This document shows, piece after piece, positions 1 through 63,746 of a stretch of 64,000 nt of DNA. The translations under genes were made by a program, and so were the position numbers. Numbering within the stretch: position 1 is the first letter of the stretch; every line of letters begins with the position of its first letter. The notes beneath the pieces are model-generated. The model was not told the DNA's origin. It made no database searches and saw nothing but the letters and a program-made list of their open reading frames with translations. The DNA is from a virus (Duplodnaviria > Caudoviricetes): positions 29,687 through 93,686 of the IMG/VR virus record IMGVR_UViG_2706795940_000001, one strand, 5' to 3'.

Positions 1-312
1 ATCGCTGGCATGTCCGAGATGCCGGGGACCTCCAAGGGCACGCAGGCGATGCTCGCCACGATGGAGGAAAACCCGGGTGACCTGTGGCGTCGTCAGTCCG
101 AAAAGGAATGGCAGCAGTGGGCCGGCGAGAACTGGGCCGGCATCGCTGAGACCGTCGCAGTCGGCGCAGCGGGTGCTGCTGGTAACTCGGGCAGCGGTCA
201 GCTGGCCGAGAGCATCTCCATCCATACCACCGACATCAGTGGAGCGTTCAGGGAAGTGGACCGCCGTAGCAAGCGCCAGTCGCGCGCCAACTCTCGCGTT
301 GGGAGGCGCTGA
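1..312 (+). CDS. Tape measure protein, C-terminal end (5' truncated by window)
   Basis: Frame open from base 1; Ala/Gly-rich; directly precedes the distal tail gene in canonical siphovirus order. Confidence 0.75.
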   Translation: MAGMSEMPGTSKGTQAMLATMEENPGDLWRRQSEKEWQQWAGENWAGIAETVAVGAAGAAGNSGSGQLAESISIHTTDISGAFREVDRRSKRQSRANSRVGRR

Positions 313-29084: not shown

Positions 29085-31024
29085 CCGCGTATGCGCAGCT
29101 GAACCATCCCGAGGTCCGTGTCGACGGCAACTATGTCGTCCCGTTCAACGACCTCATCGGTCTGATCCCCGCGGAGGTGTCCGCCGGCATGGATCTTCAG
29201 GTCCGAGTGCCGCGGAGCGGACTGCGTGGACTCGGACGGGTCTTCGAAATCGACTATTACGCACGACAACTGACCATTGACGTGGAATGGATAAACGTGG
29301 AGGTAAAAGCATGAGGACGGAAGCGGACAAGGTCGCGGTGGAGGAGTTTGACGTACGTCGCCGGCGGACCATGTCGGACCTCCAAGAGGCGCTTGACCTC
29401 CTGGGAAGCTCAGCCATTCGGCACGCGGAAGGTCACTACCGAGACACCGTACGCCTCGAAGCTCTGGTGGATCAGGCGCTCGAGATCCTGGGCGAGAAGA
29501 ACGACGGCCGGCTGCTCGACGGCATCCGCCGACTCATCGCCGAGCGAGACGAGGCGCGTCAGGCGAAGCTCGAATCCGAGCAGCGAGCCGGGTTCGCGGA
29601 GGCGTGCTGCGGGTGCGACAACGGCGGCGAGCATGTGCTGCCGACCCCTTCCCCGATCAAGCCAGAGCACTGGCGATTCGCTGCCGAGCTGATCCGCAAG
29701 TCCGGCCAGATCGGTTCGTGGACTGCAGACAACCTCGAGTGGCAGGCACAGGGCATGGAGGCCGAGCTAGCCGAGGCAGAGCGGATCCAGGACGAAGCCA
29801 TCGAATCAGCTATCACCGCGTACTTCAAGGCGGCGCACGGTTGCCAACCGAAGACCGTGTACCCGCACGTTCGCACCGGCATGGAGGCCGCACTGCGCGC
29901 GGCGTCGAAGGTGGGCGAGAATGCCTGAGATCACCATCTACGGGGCATCCGACGACCTGGTTGAGGTCGAAGGTGCTGTGCGCGACGAGTTCAATCTTGG
30001 GCGCGATGGCACCCGCCTGCGACTGAGAGCACCGGACGGACTGCAGTTGGACGTTGCAGCAGACTTTTGCAACCCGGTCGTCGGCGGGCGACTCGACTGG
30101 GTGATCGGTGTGTATGCGGTCAACGCGTACCCGTCGTGGGGGATCCGATTCCACGAGCGCCCGGGCTGCGAAGGCGATCCGGCGGTCACCATCGAAGTGC
30201 CCGAGGGGACGACCGTCGAGGAGGTGAAGTATGACTGAGCCTGAGATCTCCGAGGGGGAACGAGAGGGCGCCCGCGATCTTCTCGAGGCGCTACGCGCGT
30301 CGTTGAAGGTCAACGTCACGGGTGCGCAGACCGAAGCTCCCCGAGGTCACATCCTGACCGTCACGAAGTGCGAAGACTTCGACCCCGAATACCCGAGCTT
30401 CGACTGGTCGATCGAATGCCAGAACGTGGACAAGTGCGGCGGCTGGCAGGAGTGCCACGAACTGCACGAGATCAGTGGCGCGTCTGCGGCGGACGGACCG
30501 TGGGACTGCGACGAGAACGCGCCGTGGGAAGGAATGGACGAGTTCGAGTTCCACGGCGTGCTGCACACGTGGCACTGGGGGCACGGGTGGACCGTGCCCT
30601 ACCGCGGGTGTGTGGTAGCGGGCAACGACTGGATCTGCGATTACGCGCACGACATCGCCCTCGATCACGGGTGTGGCCGGCACGAAGTCGAGGACGACTG
30701 GGATGACATGGACTGCTATCTGATTCACGTTCGGGCCCTCGCAAGCAGTGAACCGGAATCGTGACCAACCACGCCGCGATCGAGCTGGACGCGGCGAGAC
30801 TGTACCGCCAGATCCAGCACAAGGTGTTCGATGACCCCTGGCCCGACCTGCCCGATTTCATCCGGTGCAGGATGCGTGAGATCGCACAGGAGTGCCGTGA
30901 CGCACTCCTCGGTGGACACCACCGAATCTACAGCGACTACAGCGAATTCATGGATTACCGATCCGGTGTCTGCGCTGAGTGCTGCACCCCCTACCCCTGT
31001 GACATGAGGAGATTCTTTCAATGA
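29081..31024 (+). CDS. Run of five hypothetical genes (29081-29314, 29311-29928, 29921-30238, 30231-30764, 30761-31024)
   Basis: Coupled ORFs. Confidence 0.55.
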
Positions 31025-50757: not shown

Positions 50758-51143
50758 GGCCGACATTCGATGAGTACTTTCTCGGGATTGCTGCCGCCGC
50801 TGCCACTCGATCCGATTGTGAACGAAGCCAGGTCGGGGCAGTTGTTGTACGAGATCGTCGGGTCCGATCGACCGGATACAATGGCGCTCCTGTGGGCCGG
50901 CCTGGGTGTCTTAGCTGCCCTCGACGACTTTCGAACTGTGAGCCAGGCAGTAGCTACGACACAGGCCCGAGCGCTTGTGTCGCACTGCATGCCGAGCAGA
51001 ACGCCATCATCTATAGCGACCGGCACGATCTACCTGGCTCGACGATCTATATCACTCGGGCGCCGTGTGACGGGTGTCTGAAGCTGATCCGCGGTGCACA
51101 AATCGGACGGGTCGTGTGGCCTGAAGGAGAAATGAAACCATGA
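50754..51143 (+). CDS. dCMP deaminase
   Basis: RSDC...VGA, TGYNG, HAEQNA, PCDGC. Confidence 0.93.
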   Translation: MRPTFDEYFLGIAAAAATRSDCERSQVGAVVVRDRRVRSTGYNGAPVGRPGCLSCPRRLSNCEPGSSYDTGPSACVALHAEQNAIIYSDRHDLPGSTIYITRAPCDGCLKLIRGAQIGRVVWPEGEMKP

Positions 51144-51337
51144 ACCCACTCGACATCACCAAGTCCGACATCGGCAAGACTCTGCGGATCGAGACGAAGG
51201 TGAAAAGCAAGCCAATCCGCGGCAAGATCGTCGAAGTCATCAACCACACCAGCTACGTCCGCGTGGAGCTTGCAACCGGGTTCGCAACCCGGGGAATGAT
51301 GCTCACCGCGGACAACGACGTCAGTTTCGAGGACTGA
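51140..51337 (+). CDS. Hypothetical protein
   Basis: ATGA coupling. Confidence 0.5.
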   Translation: MNPLDITKSDIGKTLRIETKVKSKPIRGKIVEVINHTSYVRVELATGFATRGMMLTADNDVSFED

Positions 51338-51375
51338 CCAAACGTCGCGATATGTCTAGACTCTAGACGTATAAT
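51334..51375 (+). promoter_or_regulatory. Probable promoter(s) for the cutinase cassette
   Basis: CTGACC-17 bp-TAGACT and a downstream TATAAT, overlapping TGTCTAGA.TCTAGAC. Confidence 0.5.
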
Positions 51376-51424
51376 AGAGAGATAGGCGACGACGGTTCGC
51401 CATTCACCTCTGGAGACCCCCGCC

Positions 51425-52048
51425 ATGCGCATTCTTGGCCTACTTCTTGCCGCTCTCATTGCGGTCTGCGGCGTCAATACTGTGCAGGCGGGGGATTCTC
51501 ATGCCGGTGGTTGTCCCAGCGTCCAGCGGTACGCGGTGGGCGGCAATGCGGACCCCACCAGCAGTCGTGTGCGGGCGCCGTACCCGCGCGTCAACATCGC
51601 ATACCCGGCCAATGTGTTCGCCGGCGACTACAGCCGTGACGTCGCGATGGCCAAGCTTAGCGACTACGCAAGGACCACGCGCGCGCTATGTCCGGACACC
51701 GCGATCGAGGTCTACGGCTTCTCGCTCGGAGCCAGCGTGGCATCGGCGGTAGTTGACCACTGGCAGGCAGACCCGGTCATGAACCGCAACACCACCGCGG
51801 TCTACTACGGCAACCCCCGCCGGCCAGTCGACTACCGCGGCCGAGGTGGCATCGAAGCAGTTGGGCTGCCGAACATTCCAGGGATCTACACGTTCTGGGG
51901 CCAGCGCGGAACAGGGCCCATACCCATCGTCGAGGTCTGCAACCTCGCCTGGGACATCATCTGCGACGCACCAGTACCACTGCATCGCGACCTACCAGCA
52001 TCGTGGCAGGCCCTCTGGGGATACCTGACCACCGGGCATCGCTACTAG
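51425..52048 (+). CDS. Secreted cutinase/PE-PPE-domain serine hydrolase
   Basis: Signal peptide; YPA, GFSLG nucleophile elbow, YGNPRRP, D.ICD, HRY. Confidence 0.8.
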   Translation: MRILGLLLAALIAVCGVNTVQAGDSHAGGCPSVQRYAVGGNADPTSSRVRAPYPRVNIAYPANVFAGDYSRDVAMAKLSDYARTTRALCPDTAIEVYGFSLGASVASAVVDHWQADPVMNRNTTAVYYGNPRRPVDYRGRGGIEAVGLPNIPGIYTFWGQRGTGPIPIVEVCNLAWDIICDAPVPLHRDLPASWQALWGYLTTGHRY

Positions 52049-59413: not shown

Positions 59414-61747
59414 TCAGGCAGCGGTGTTCCAAGTGTTGATGAGCATGTCGGCCGTCTCGATCGGCGAGTACAGGCCGGCGCGGATCGCCTCTCGACGAGC
59501 ATCGGAGTACTCGCCCGACACGACGCTCGATACGAGTGCGATGGGCAGGTCGAGAACGTCCATGATCAGGACGAGCATGTTGTTCTTGGTCACGGGTGAT
59601 CCTTCCACTCGGTCGCATTCGGGTAGTGATCCTCCAGCGTGGAGAACCGCCGGTCGATGTCACGGTTGTTGTAGTCGTCGTGCGGCATGAGGACGTGACG
59701 ATGGTCCGAGTACTTCGCACTCGCGAAGTGCACGCCGACCATGCCCTCAGGCACCGAGTCTTGCCAGCTCCCATATGCGGCAACCACCATGTGCTTGCCG
59801 GCATCCAGGAGCTCCTGCTTGCGGTCGTACTCGGCCTGCGATGACGCCGCGCCATCTCGGCACGACTCACCGTGCACGCCGTTGATACCGCCCTCTTTGC
59901 GGTAGCACGCCTGGCACAGTGCCGGCGGGTAGCAGTAGTGGAGCACGTGACGGTTCGCCGATCGCTGATTGTCGGCGGTCACCTTGTACTTGCACTTGCG
60001 CTTGCGAACGCCTCCCGACTGTCCGCAGCTATCGCAGCACAGCCGGCCTCGCGTGTCGGTGCTGTATCCCATGTCAGGTCTCCTTGAAGAATGCGACGAC
60101 CACAGCGGTCGCCAGTGTTCCAAGCGCGACGAACAGTGTTGTCACGATGATGATTTGGAGTGCGTACAGCCAGGGGTGCATGGCTACCCTTCAGTGCCCG
60201 AAGTGAACGGACACCTGAAGCGGCGCCTTGCAGGTAGGGCAGGCGACGTATGGCGTGCCGTCGTCCTCGGGCTCGATGGTCTCGAAGTCGGGCGTGTCAT
60301 ATGCCCCGCCGTACTCGACCCAGTCGACGCCGGAGCTGTTCGAGTCCCAAGCATGAGTGCCGGCGTACACCGTGTCACCATCCAGTCCGACGCCGATCTC
60401 CTGCCCATAGTTCTCGGTGCATGACAGCGACACGTGGCCCTCGGTGTACAACTCGTAGCGGCCCTCGTAACCGCCGATCGAGAACGCGCGCGGCTTGGTG
60501 TATCCGCCGCGGACGTCACACCCGCCGTGGTACTGAAGCATCACCATGTCGGTGTCGAAACCATCTCGATCGGTGTACGTGAAGACAACGTATTGCAGCG
60601 TCGAGTCCAGCCAGGTTTCACCGTTGTAGGTGTTCACCGTCTGCACATCCGACGCTCGGCCATGCTGTTCGAGCCACTCGACGAACGCCTCAGCCTCAGC
60701 CATCCATGGTCGGTCACGCTCATCTTCCAGCGCGACGAACATCTCGAACATGCGATTGAGCCTCGGCGCGTAGTCCAGGATCTCGTTGAGCCAATGGAAG
60801 GCCGACACCGTGATGTCGACGTAGTTGTAGCTGGCGTCGAGAGTGACTTGAGGCAGGCTGAGGAAGTACTCGCCAGCGTCAACACCCGCCGTCGCGGCCT
60901 GGTTGCGCTCCCAGCTGCGACCGTAGGCACCCCCTGAGTCGAGGAAGTGCCGGCCGGTGTTCTCGGTCCACATCTCAGCGAGGACCTGAGTGGTGATATC
61001 GATGGTGGACATGGGCGTCTCCTTCAGTGTGTGAACTAACCCATCAGTTGTATGTCCAGGTGTGCATTAGACACCTGGACACACGGACTCAGGGGTGAGG
61101 TCACGCGGGCACGTAGACCGCGATGGTTCCATTGAGGGCGTGGTGCGAGTACGCAGCCGGCCTTGCCAGTGCGGCCCGCGCGGTGGATGTGGCCAGAGCC
61201 GGCGGCAGCTTGCCATCCACCCAGACGGCACTGTCTCGCAGCGCAACCCGAGGGAGCTCTCTCGCTACGTCGTCGAGGGTGACGCCGCACACTTGCTCGA
61301 TCTCGGTCAGGCTGTGAACGTAGTGGGTCATTGTCATACCTCTCATCTGTCCAGCTAGTAATTAGACACTAGCACCGGTGAATGGTGGGAGTCAATGCCC
61401 TACCAGGCAAGGATCCCGATGCCCAAGTGTGTGTACTCGGTTTGGGCATTCGACAGCCAGATCGACATGAGGGCGTCGTCGGTTGCTTCCACGGTTGTGG
61501 TGTCGCCGGCGACCCAGATGCCAGTGATCCGGCCCTCATGCATGCTCACTCGCACGACCAGCTTCCACCGGTCATTGGGGTCGAGGCTGCCGTCGTCGTG
61601 CAGGAGCAGGTTACGGGCACCGTCGCCCATCCAGACCACACAGGTCTGGTCGATCTGAGTGAATGAGTTACCGCTCACGCTGAAGTTCTCGACCAGGCTC
61701 CCGTCGTGGTGGACGGCGAACCCACGTGCCGAATAGACGTAGCTCAT
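59414..61747 (-). CDS. Hypothetical genes (59414-59593, 59590-60072, 60191-61012, 61101-61337, 61400-61747)
   Basis: Minus-strand ORFs with RBSs. Confidence 0.6.
61053..61081. repeat. 11-bp inverted repeat containing TTAGACA
   Basis: TGTCCAGGTGT-N7-ACACCTGGACA. Confidence 0.75.
61366..61395 (-). promoter_or_regulatory. Leftward SigA promoter
   Basis: TTGACT-18 bp-TAGTGT with CCCACC after the -35. Confidence 0.75.
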
Positions 61748-61774
61748 TGTGTGCCTTTCAGTTGTGTCGAATGG

Positions 61775-61951
61775 TCAGGCGGACAGCTTGACCAGGCTCA
61801 CGCCCCACTCCGGCCGGCGATGGCGACCGTTGTTCGAGTAGGGGAGTGACCCGCCGAGCTCGCCGTGGATGACGTCGTCCCACTGGTCGAAAATGCTGAC
61901 CAGGTTGGGAGTGAGTTCGAGACGGTTGTTTGTAGCCATGTGACGAGCCAT
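61775..61951 (-). CDS. 58-aa micro-protein, paralog 1 (MARH...GRHRR...VSLVKLSA)
   Basis: RBS GGAAGG; follows promoter 61999-62027; homologous to 62952-63128. Confidence 0.8.
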   Translation of the reverse strand: MARHMATNNRLELTPNLVSIFDQWDDVIHGELGGSLPYSNNGRHRRPEWGVSLVKLSA

Positions 61952-62034
61952 GATAGAGCCTTCCAGGAACTTGGTGGAATTCTTTCGCTCTGGCCTTAAG
62001 TCTACCAGAGTAGTTGGTGGAAGTCAATTCCCTT

Positions 62035-62170
62035 TGACTCGGAGTTTGCAAGCGTTGCAGTGACTCTCGGAGTCGGAAGTAGACTGCCGGCATCGCCGAC
62101 ATGTCGCCACCGTAGTGCGTTGGTACGGAATCGAACCGCGTCTACTTAGAGAGTAGACACCATGCAACGC
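62035..62170 (-). ncRNA. Structured RNA X (T-loop module plus module B)
   Basis: GCGG-TTCGATT-CCGT T-arm within a closed multi-stem; module B covaries with its copy at 62781-62856. Confidence 0.6.
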
Positions 62171-62177
62171 GTCCCTG

Positions 62178-62711
62178 TCAAGCGTTGACAGAGGTACCCA
62201 ATTTCATGGCTGCCAACACAACCTCATTCTGGACAGCCTTGGGCACGTTGGTACTCATCCACCGCTGCCAGTCGGCAGGGTCACGATTGACCAATTGGGC
62301 AGCAAACCCATTGACCTGCCGCTCACGGTTCGCCACCGCGCGCCCCTTGTCGACGGTGGCAGTGTTGACCTTGACCACCTTGGGCTTGGCCGGCCGCGAT
62401 TTGGGCAGACTGGTCCCACTGGACCGGACCTTGCGCCGGCGGATCTCACCCGTGTCGGCGTCGGTGGTCAGACCCATGCTGGACAGGTCACGACGCCGCA
62501 CATTGAACCCACCGGGCGTCTGGACCACGTTGCCCTGGTCATAGAGGTACCCGCGTTCCCTGTCGGTCAGATTCGACCATGGTGCCGCACCCTCACGATA
62601 CTGCTGACGTGAGGTGCGAACCGAGTTTCGTGCCGTGACCCGCGGGTCCGCGGGCCCACTCGGTCCCCAAAAGTCGCCATGCGGCAGGGGAGCTTTCTCA
62701 AACCTGTCCAT
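62178..62711 (-). CDS. Hypothetical basic protein, 177 aa
   Basis: RBS GAAAGG; follows promoter 62745-62773. Confidence 0.65.
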   Translation of the reverse strand: MDRFEKAPLPHGDFWGPSGPADPRVTARNSVRTSRQQYREGAAPWSNLTDRERGYLYDQGNVVQTPGGFNVRRRDLSSMGLTTDADTGEIRRRKVRSSGTSLPKSRPAKPKVVKVNTATVDKGRAVANRERQVNGFAAQLVNRDPADWQRWMSTNVPKAVQNEVVLAAMKLGTSVNA

Positions 62712-62780
62712 CGGATCGAACCTTTCATTTCGCCGTTGCCATTAAGTCTACCAGAGTAATCGGTGGAAGTCAAACCTTGG

Positions 62781-62920
62781 TGACTCGGAGTTTGCACGCG
62801 TGGCAGTGACTCTCGGAATCTAGGTTCGACTGTGAGCACTGCCCACAGGTCGCCACAATTCTGGTTCGCGCAATACTCCCATTGAAGGGTAGGGCCCGAA
62901 TGTCCCGGTATTGCCTGGTA
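62781..62920 (-). ncRNA. Structured RNA Y (module A plus module B)
   Basis: Own promoter, no credible ORF, two covarying modules. Confidence 0.65.
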
Positions 62921-62951
62921 GTGCAAGCCTACCAAAGGTAGGTGGTGGAAG

Positions 62952-63128
62952 TCAAGCCGTGAGCTTGACCAGGCTCACCCAACCCTGCCGACGGTGGCGC
63001 CCATTGTCGGAGTAGGGCAGATCACCGACTGGAGTGCCATCCAATCGGACGCCATCCCATGCCCGGGCGATACGTCGCAGATTGGGAGTGTCATCATCGA
63101 TCGGAGTGAGGATGCAGTGACGCGCCAT
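62952..63128 (-). CDS. 58-aa micro-protein, paralog 2 (MARH...GRHRR...VSLVKLTA)
   Basis: RBS GAAAGG; stop overlaps the next -35; homologous to 61775-61951. Confidence 0.8.
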   Translation of the reverse strand: MARHCILTPIDDDTPNLRRIARAWDGVRLDGTPVGDLPYSDNGRHRRQGWVSLVKLTA

Positions 63129-63166
63129 TGTTCTAGCCTTTCAATCGGTTCGTTTTTCAGAGAGTG

Positions 63167-63210
63167 GCAACACTCCGATTGAACGGTAGGGCCCAATGTC
63201 CCGGTATTGC
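63167..63210 (-). ncRNA. Module A copy 2 in a 5' leader
   Basis: GCAATAC/GTGTTGC closing stem, CCG-TTCAAT-CGG hairpin. Confidence 0.55.
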
Positions 63211-63247
63211 CTGGTAGGTAAACCCTACCAAAGGTAGGTGGTGGAAG

Positions 63248-63493
63248 TCAAGCGCTAAACGCGCGTCGGTCATCTTCCAAGTCTGCGCACGTATCACAGA
63301 ACGCCCTGCACTTGGGCGCACTGTCATGCACGTAGCAGATACGGGCAGGATCGTATGGGCGCACAATTGTCCCATTGGATCGGGCATTGAATGAGATTTG
63401 TGCATCCAATGTCATCCACAGGTCACTGCCCATGCCTTGGGTAGTGACGTCACCCGTTGCCATGTCGATTAGCATGACGCGTTCGGTTTGCAT
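63248..63493 (-). CDS. Hypothetical protein, 81 aa, Cys-rich C-terminus
   Basis: RBS GAAAGG; follows promoter 63522-63550; stop overlaps the next -35. Confidence 0.65.
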   Translation of the reverse strand: MQTERVMLIDMATGDVTTQGMGSDLWMTLDAQISFNARSNGTIVRPYDPARICYVHDSAPKCRAFCDTCADLEDDRRAFSA

Positions 63494-63746
63494 CGTGGGC
63501 CCTTTCGTCGGTGTCCCTGTGACCCTACCAAGGTAATCGGTGGGAGTCAACCCGTGGGTTGGGTGGGAGTCGGTGGGTGGCATGACTCCGACGGTACCAA
63601 GGTGGGCGGTGGGAGTCAACCCGTGCGCCGCGCCCGCTGTCGTCGAAGTCATGCCCGTAGGCTACCAGGCGTCGGCCGGCTTAGGGAAGCCTAACCCGTG
63701 ACAACGTTGGTTGGCACGGTTCGGGCAGTGTCGCCGGGCGCGCGGC

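Follow-up and report, generated by a model that had tools for sequence, protein, structure and literature searches.

Introduction

In mycobacteriophage L5, no RNA is more abundant at any time of infection than the one starting at Pleft (position 51,672; Dedrick et al., 2017; PMC5712189). Approximately 90% of the Pleft transcripts end at 51,140–51,190, and the product of about 500 nt is stable and processed into species of 100–400 nt (PMC5712189). The Pleft region is toxic when cloned, and deletions over 51,195–51,407 were unobtainable, whereas 51,407–51,619 is dispensable (PMC5712189). The non-coding Pleft RNA was described for L5, D29 and StarStuff, RNA-seq and Northern blots placing its 3′ end in L5/D29 (PMC5712189), and in D29 a sharp RNA-seq peak is located directly upstream of gene 89 (bioRxiv 10.1101/2025.11.21.689395). 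A tRNA-like fold is mentioned in neither PMC5712189 nor bioRxiv 10.1101/2025.11.21.689395, no paper on stoperators in the literature searched uses the term tRNA-like, and the cluster A Pleft RNA has no Rfam family. Since 2017 it has been puzzling that a non-coding RNA, stable, toxic and in part essential, should be the most abundant transcript of L5 and D29 infection.

Several RNAs of other systems combine tRNA-like structures or tRNA-processing enzymes with a longer transcript. The TMERs of murine gammaherpesvirus 68 consist of a tRNA-like element followed by pre-miRNA hairpins, and the parts are separated by tRNA-processing enzymes. The C4 antisense RNA of phages P1 and P7 (RF01695) regulates a transcript from whose leader it is itself released by RNase P. 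The tRNA-like domain of tmRNA is built from both ends of a long RNA and charged with alanine, and at the 3′ end of MALAT1 a tRNA-like structure, mascRNA, defines the transcript end. The t-elements of plant mitochondria are tRNA-like structures that set transcript ends via RNase P and RNase Z (PMC1920247).

Here we examine the right end of a Gordonia phage genome, for which a first-pass annotation had described an array of promoter-driven small RNAs built from three module types, A, B and T.

Results

The window and its relatives

[quoted passage not shown] Its source is a temperate Gordonia phage of cluster CQ1 with a genome of 93.7 kb, of which the window is the right 64 kb. The nearest public relatives are the Gordonia phages Abscondus and Culver (93–94% identity across the region), followed by WilliamBoone, OneUp and BrutonGaster. 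The whole genomes of the window phage and these five relatives, three of the six being close kin, formed the comparison set, in which nine copies of A, eleven of B and five of T were compared. OneUp and BrutonGaster belong to subcluster CQ2 and the kin to CQ1 (PMC10865867, PMC6426606, PMC10868165). The genome carries seven tRNA genes, all in the left arm and none in the window (ARAGORN). The phage family encodes an RtcB RNA ligase (E 4e-111) and an RlaP-family nucleotidyltransferase (E 1e-10); RlaP functions in tRNA repair (bioRxiv 10.64898/2025.12.29.696909).

Promoters, ORFs and order of the units

Seven near-identical leftward promoters (P1–P7) are located in the last 2.3 kb of the genome. 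Their exact -35 motif occurs seven times genome-wide, always on the minus strand and always within these 2.3 kb, with -35 starts at 63619, 63550, 63251, 62955, 62773, 62027 and 61395. The consensus is a -35 TTGACT followed by YCCACC, a spacer of 17–18 nt and a TG-extended -10. When up to three mismatches were allowed, the promoter motif was found three times, with a shuffled-sequence expectation of 0.00. In the leftward direction, the order is P1, P2 and an 81-aa ORF; P3, A2 and ORF58a; P4, A1 and B2; P5, ORF177, T and B1; P6, ORF58b and a 115-aa ORF; and finally P7. The features of the central part are as follows:

63222..63251, minus strand: promoter P3, -35 TTGACT, 18-nt spacer, TG-extended -10 TAGGGT
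63167..63210, minus strand: module A copy 2 (A2), 5′ leader of ORF58a
62952..63128, minus strand: ORF58a, 58 aa, PHROG 9377, function not known, paralog of ORF58b
62926..62955, minus strand: promoter P4, drives the ORF-free A1+B2 unit
62870..62914, minus strand: module A copy 1 (A1)
62774..62856, minus strand: module B copy 2 (B2), with the 8-mer GTGGCGAC, hairpin 1 at about 62828–62851 and hairpin 2 at about 62782–62820
62745..62773, minus strand: promoter P5, 17-nt spacer, -10 TAGACT
62178..62711, minus strand: ORF177, PHROG 14511, function not known
62112..62172, minus strand: module T, tRNA-like, in the 3′ untranslated region of ORF177
62028..62110, minus strand: module B copy 1 (B1)
61999..62027, minus strand: promoter P6, drives ORF58b
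61775–61951, minus strand: ORF58b, paralog of ORF58a

The units are tightly joined. Three ORFs have their stop codon within the next -35, including the 81-aa ORF upstream of P3, which stops within the -35 of P3, and the stop codon of ORF177 lies within a relic TTGACA. The neighbouring proteins belong only to PHROG families without assigned function and have no significant Pfam match. A search for kin based on the ORF177 protein returned the same five phages or no match, and in the relatives a tRNA-like module is always located 3′ of ORF177. From the mapped L5 Pleft start (PMC5712189), the transcript of P4 is predicted to start near 62919, and the ORF-free unit from this predicted start to the end of B2 at about 62782 measures approximately 138 nt. 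The A modules begin 4–5 nt past the predicted start of consensus promoters, and B2 ends 8–9 nt ahead of the -35 of P5.

This arrangement is not confined to the window. The ORF-free unit of promoter, tRNA-like module and B is kept in six of six phages, and each of the 11 B copies is preceded by a tRNA-like module (A, a related type A′ described below, or T) and followed by a -35 located 8–9 nt past its last pair. The modules lie behind consensus early promoters, and their proposed re-use in different combinations is supported. Covariance models were built for B (R1), for A (R2) and, from eight copies only, for an element of cluster A mycobacteriophages (R3, see below). Over the six complete genomes, R1 and R2 detected right-end copies only: B is present twice per genome, once in BrutonGaster, and A one to three times. 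When IMG/VR, GTDB genomes and JGI metagenomes were scanned for the exact pattern of the A core, only OneUp and BrutonGaster were found. The scan of the same collections with the B core gave 33 extra loci, which we regard as chance matches since they scored 13–25 bits against the B model, compared with 52–99 bits for true copies.

Fold and covariation of modules A and A′

Both copies of A are present on the minus strand at the positions listed above. The A core has one exact occurrence, the second copy being one base shorter, with a shuffled-sequence expectation of 0.00. Nine copies were collected from the six phages, eight of them distinct. In the eight distinct copies, the 7-bp closing stem described by the first-pass annotation is 100% paired, with four of its seven pairs doubly changed. 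It occurs in four sequence versions (GCAATAC, GCGATAC, GGAATTAC and GCACATAC), each with the matching partner; in A2, one of the seven pairs is G-U. The T-like hairpin, a 3-bp stem with a 6-nt UUCAAU loop, likewise shows the compensatory change ascribed to it (C-G to G-C or the reverse in half of the copies) and in addition one U-G pair. Pairing in A is 92%, compared with 32–55% in the control in which the partner was slid by 1–3 columns. The GGG/CCC hairpin of A is invariant in all copies and is therefore neither supported nor refuted; the bases of a putative elbow-type contact between D-loop and T-loop are likewise invariant. The core of 30 nt is almost invariant across diverged phages.

Module A has no anticodon arm, and its closing stem measures 7–8 bp. 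The encoded 3′ ends past the closing stem differ, with CCA in two copies and other triplets elsewhere. A also exists without B: four of the nine copies form the 5′ leader of a small ORF, and a OneUp copy that lacks its own promoter sits between two genes, in the manner of punctuation. In WilliamBoone and BrutonGaster we found a third tRNA-like type, A′. Its closing stem has 5 bp and is combined with a small hairpin of 3 bp, the loop of which ends in GG, and with a T arm of 6 bp whose 7-nt loop is canonical. A′ also lacks an anticodon arm.

Module B consists of two covarying hairpins

The two copies of B proposed earlier were recovered on the minus strand, where the B core occurs exactly twice (shuffled-sequence expectation 0.00). 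Eleven copies from the six genomes were aligned. The substitutions are largely pair-preserving: over 22 pairs in 11 copies, 95% of the cells are paired and seven pairs are doubly changed, whereas the slid controls gave 21–39% pairing. Hairpin 1 has a 7-bp stem and a 3-nt loop, and 10 pairs when the flanking GAC/GTC is included. The 3′ half of B, which had been described as a plain conserved string, is in fact a second and longer covarying hairpin. In this hairpin 2, the outer stem of 5 bp is represented by at least five sequence versions and the inner stem of 4 bp by three; a 3×1 internal loop lies between the two stems, and the apical region of 17 nt hardly varies. Paralogous copies of B within one genome show independent compensatory changes; since the two copies of each genome diverged independently, they provide extra information despite the shallow sampling.

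The hairpins of B are G+C-rich and are not followed by a U tract, and no intrinsic terminator was called on the minus strand between 56000 and 64000. The missing U tract suggests that B is a 3′ boundary and stabiliser instead of a classical terminator. Alternative pairings of the B apical loop were examined as well. A pseudoknot with the 5′ 8-mer of B is not supported: opposite a fixed G, the middle position varies among A, C and G, and a further pair is broken in one copy. Pairing of the apical loop with A1 (3′ strand) or with the acceptor strand of T, which the first-pass annotation had noted and which is visible in single-sequence folds, is confined to the closest kin and lost in OneUp, WilliamBoone and BrutonGaster; the lone acceptor change in OneUp is compensated within T and not in B. 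These two pairings were rejected as conserved features.

Fold of module T and strand of the modules

Module T is located where the first-pass annotation had placed it and has the UUCGAUU T-arm, but its T stem measures 4 bp and adjoins an anticodon-like arm with no variable loop. The fold consists of a 6-bp acceptor-like stem with both acceptor strands present, a 6-nt GG-containing linker in place of the D arm, a 6-bp anticodon-like arm with a conserved 7-nt loop, and the 4-bp T stem with its UUCGAUU loop. An A and the trailer CUAC follow. The CQ copies of T have compensatory changes of their own, with three versions each of the acceptor stem and the T stem.

Several pairs of A and B are G-U on the minus strand and A-C on the plus strand. 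They fit the minus strand only, and thus the structure is that of the transcribed RNA and not of the DNA or of the other strand. The thermodynamic z-score of A1+B2 was weak, at -1.1, and that of T+B1 moderate, at -3.0; it is on covariation, and not on energy, that the case for the folds rests. To judge from the pairing kept by compensatory and G-U changes, A, B and T are real, re-used structured RNA domains.

Tests against known RNA families

According to the first-pass annotation, the modules belong to no named family. This is correct as far as Rfam is concerned, and A, B and T had no match at E≤10 in permissive searches of 6 kb and 1.2 kb; T, however, belongs to the unnamed Pleft RNA seen experimentally. 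The Rfam tRNA model RF00005 sees neither A nor T (E≤10, 1.2 kb). ARAGORN in its standard, relaxed and mitochondrial modes found no credible tRNA, the calls made in the relaxed and mitochondrial modes being spurious, and no tmRNA. A full tRNA geometry (7-bp acceptor, 5-bp T stem with a 7-nt loop, D and anticodon arms) is absent in A and T. None of the curated Rfam models of self-cleaving ribozymes and riboswitches matches the modules. A bacterial Y RNA (YrlA) partnered by Ro/Rsr was also considered; it gave no Rfam match, and since the phage genome contains no TROVE protein match at E≤1, a Ro/Y-RNA system is excluded. The literature searched has no name for the A, B or T modules, and A and B are undescribed.

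Relationship of module T to the cluster A Pleft RNA

BLAST searches with T gave weak matches (E about 5) to unannotated right ends of cluster A mycobacteriophages. The right ends of Mulciber and L5 share one layout, consisting of an acceptor-like stem, a T arm with a UUCGAUU loop, one unpaired base, the 3′ acceptor strand, A, the trailer CUAC and a hairpin, followed by TTGACATCCACC with a ribosome-binding site and then gene 89. In ten cluster A copies the fold is a cloverleaf with four arms and a length of about 95–105 nt. For eight of these copies RNAalifold gave 35 pairs, 13 of which show compensatory changes. The apical loops vary freely and include GNRA tetraloops.

The R3 model recognized held-out cluster A copies with 36 bits (Mulciber) and 29 bits (Echild). 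It also matched T in OneUp (27 bits, E 6e-5), Abscondus (25.5 bits) and BrutonGaster (24 bits), the last of which had been unnoticed until this search, and gave 16.3 bits in the window (E 0.045, marginal) and 15.2 bits in Culver (E 0.09). The CQ copies of T align as the cluster A cloverleaf minus its D-like arm (loop GGAAUG); the four-arm form is not found in T, which is a reduced variant. The tRNA-likeness attributed to the modules thus holds for T, found by a model of the cluster A cloverleaf, and for A′ in the relatives. Neither A nor B matches R3, and no counterpart of either was found at the cluster A loci examined. A′-type elements were also seen in Mulciber and, between genes 88 and 89, in L5; the same promoter/operator motif follows each of them.

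The context of T is that of the cluster A element: early promoters of the right end precede it, and one or more hairpins, the promoter/operator TTGACnnCCACC and a small gene follow. In model score and predicted fold, T belongs to the same family as the cluster A element upstream of gene 89. The L5 cloverleaf spans 51,134–51,226 of the record, and the published 3′ end of the abundant RNA is at 51,140–51,190 (PMC5712189). T by its kinship, and the series promoter, tRNA-like module, hairpin and promoter by its context, are the Gordonia version of the abundant Pleft RNA, and by analogy a Pleft-type RNA would be expressed in the CQ phage. On these sequence comparisons, a phage RNA that had been observed in experiments but whose structure was uncharacterised is found, with T, in phages of a second host genus, and proves to be tRNA-like.

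Discussion

The closest described system is the cluster A Pleft RNA. [quoted passage not shown] The cluster A element differs in being a full cloverleaf of about 95–105 nt with a D-like arm, which T does not have, and A and B modules are missing there; the host genus is also different. The TMERs resemble our locus in their several copies at one genome end, each with a tRNA look-alike ahead of two hairpins. The resemblance goes no further than the design: they belong to a eukaryotic virus, depend on RNA polymerase III, give rise to microRNAs and have no sequence relation to the modules. C4 is likewise a small phage regulatory RNA within a leader, but the modules do not match its Rfam model at E≤10, and complementarity of A to the downstream leader is found in some copies only. 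A translational switch between A2 and its ribosome-binding site is unevenly supported: the complementarity was nominally unusual in the window, where 3% of shuffles reached it, was marginal in the OneUp copies and was missing in BrutonGaster. T-elements and mascRNA are also tRNA-like structures inside a longer transcript, in different kingdoms; the lone Rfam trace was a 15-bit mascRNA match on the Mulciber element, far under threshold. A and A′ resemble the tRNA-like domain of tmRNA, with an acceptor stem, a T arm and a D-loop analogue and no anticodon arm.

We propose, at about even odds, that the tRNA-like domains give the early transcripts defined and stable ends, that small RNAs accumulate as a result and that B is the 3′ boundary. 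A, T and B would be RNA domains of immediate-early leftward transcripts, and host tRNA maturation enzymes would treat the tRNA-like domains as pre-tRNAs, with RNase P acting at the 5′ side and RNase Z or an exonuclease at the 3′ side. Early transcripts would in this way be cleaved at fixed points, and the ends left behind would be compact and exonuclease-resistant; B, as a G+C-rich double hairpin, would mark and protect the 3′ boundary just before the next promoter. The released RNAs, of about 140 nt for A+B, might then build up early and have a host tRNA-binding factor as their target in trans. Recognition by RNase P and RNase Z is a guess, because A has a T-like stem of 3 bp with a 6-nt loop and both ARAGORN and the Rfam tRNA model miss A and T.

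The main rival, which appears rather unlikely to us, is that the modules are purely cis-acting, i.e. processing, stability and insulation signals for early mRNAs, and that the excised pieces are functionless. RNase III sites between the early genes of T7 and the t-elements of plant mitochondria are parallels for such signals. A purely cis-acting role would account well for the four of nine A copies that lead small ORFs and the one between two genes, for the position of T within the 3′ untranslated region of ORF177 and for the fact that B always adjoins the next promoter; the end of about 90% of the L5 transcripts at the tRNA-like element (PMC5712189) points in the same direction. The L5 deletion that was unobtainable could also reflect a cis effect on downstream genes and not a trans-acting RNA. 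On the other hand, an ORF-free unit with its own promoter is kept in six of six phages, which counts against a pure mRNA signal, since such a signal needs none. Furthermore, the near-invariance of the 30-nt A core and the 17-nt apical region of B across diverged phages suggests specific recognition beyond a stable hairpin, and toxicity is seen when the cluster A RNA is expressed by itself (PMC5712189).

Two other roles would give the repeats a function in defence or in the DNA. The modules might be decoys or sponges for host defences and toxins that attack tRNAs, such as anticodon nucleases and acceptor-end nucleotidyltransferase toxins, made before the tRNA-repair enzymes of the phage. The RtcB ligase, the RlaP-family nucleotidyltransferase and the seven tRNAs of the phage family fit such a role, as does the conserved 7-nt anticodon-like loop of T. 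Nevertheless, we consider decoys improbable: A and A′ have no anticodon arm, the freely varying apical loops of the cluster A homologues indicate that an anticodon-like loop is not the conserved feature, and the cluster A RNA is required on a laboratory host. Very improbable, finally, is a DNA-level role, in which the repeats would be operator, recombination or replication sites or decayed tRNA/attP remnants without RNA function. On the opposite strand, the promoter motif does resemble the asymmetric repressor site (stoperator) of cluster A, recombination between repeats is documented (PMC5712189) and was seen here for A2+ORF58a, and CQ2 phages integrate in tRNA genes (PMC10865867). This role is disfavoured, however, by stems that change in sequence yet keep their pairing, unlike a protein-binding DNA site, by G-U pairs that suit one strand only and by the independent compensatory changes of paralogous copies in one genome; moreover, T has both acceptor strands, unlike an attP core, and the integrase is located about 40 kb away from the modules.

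The reading with defined transcript ends and accumulating small RNAs may be carried further. At least two unrelated actinobacteriophage clusters, A on Mycobacterium and CQ on Gordonia, might share tRNA-mimicking immediate-early RNAs that serve as effectors of host takeover and occupy or misdirect a tRNA-handling enzyme or the ribosome, an extension which we regard as tentative and somewhat doubtful. If it were true, the RNA would be made in great excess within minutes, the combination of host toxicity and requirement for lytic growth seen with the L5/D29 RNA would be explained, and in A and B this weapon would have been elaborated in a way specific to Gordonia.

With the covarying tRNA-like cloverleaf at its 3′ end, the Pleft RNA is now given a shape, of which reduced and modular versions are kept in a distant Gordonia phage cluster. 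An anonymous RNA-seq peak is thereby turned into hypotheses on processing by RNase P and RNase Z, on binding of tRNA-handling proteins and on decoys. The three covariance models can be used across the several thousand sequenced actinobacteriophages, and in annotation the module stretches should be marked as non-coding RNA features and not left blank or filled with doubtful small ORFs.

The array itself has changed among close relatives. The A2+ORF58a unit is missing in Abscondus and Culver, the two closest relatives, and the breakpoints lie within the repeated promoter+A sequence, which is consistent with recombination between repeated promoter+A units.

tRNA-like elements of cluster A mycobacteriophages

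A covarying tRNA-like cloverleaf fold is located just 5′ of gene 89 in the cluster A mycobacteriophage L5, in Mulciber and in further cluster A phages (loci L043–L052), with compensatory changes at 13 of its 35 pairs. The 3′ end of the Pleft RNA, the published abundant non-coding RNA, coincides with this segment, which almost none of the 155 matching records annotates. L5 and Mulciber have a second, smaller tRNA-like element composed of a closing stem, a small hairpin and a T arm, and here the TTGACAnCCACC motif again follows the element. It is of the same type as A′, the tRNA-like module of the Gordonia phages WilliamBoone and BrutonGaster. Positions were counted within each locus:

L5 (L044), 831–929 (record 51,134–51,226), minus strand: tRNA-like cloverleaf directly upstream of gene 89
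L5 (L044), 124–173, minus strand: smaller tRNA-like element between genes 88 and 89
Mulciber (L043), about 1788–1835: smaller tRNA-like element

Promoter signature and putative operator

Window 61384–63619, minus strand: seven sites of the promoter signature TTGACTYCCACC

On the opposite strand, TTGACTYCCACC is similar to the stoperator, an asymmetric 13-bp site bound by the repressor in cluster A phages; the stoperator overlaps the −35 region of Pleft. Within the genome the signature is confined to the right-end promoters and may therefore serve as operator for the CQ repressor. [quoted passage not shown]

Variation among the modules

Window 63128–63212, minus strand: leader region of A2, the second copy of tRNA-like module A
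WilliamBoone (L005), 674–758: divergent copy of the double-hairpin module B (52.6 bits against the B covariance model)
BrutonGaster (L004), 1822–1882: T-type tRNA-like element overlapping the annotated GTG start (1850) of gene 169

In minimum-energy folds of the full leader, A pairs with leader sequence downstream of it, the ribosome-binding site among it, both for A2 and for OneUp copy A1; the extension CCACTCT is common to A2 and both OneUp leader copies. Tested against shuffled sequences, the support for this pairing was 3–13%, and in BrutonGaster it is absent. The pairing may represent a translational switch. The WilliamBoone B copy is without the 5′ 8-mer and differs in the apical loop while retaining both hairpins, revealing which portions of B tolerate variation. 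For BrutonGaster gene 169, either the start may be miscalled or RNA and ORF may overlap.

RNA-repair genes and tRNAs

Abscondus (L009), 529–1746 and 29128–29835: genes 72 and 136, with homologues in the genome of the window's phage

The phage family carries a tRNA/RNA-repair pair, RtcB ligase and RlaP nucleotidyltransferase, alongside seven tRNAs, one of which was called with a four-base anticodon.
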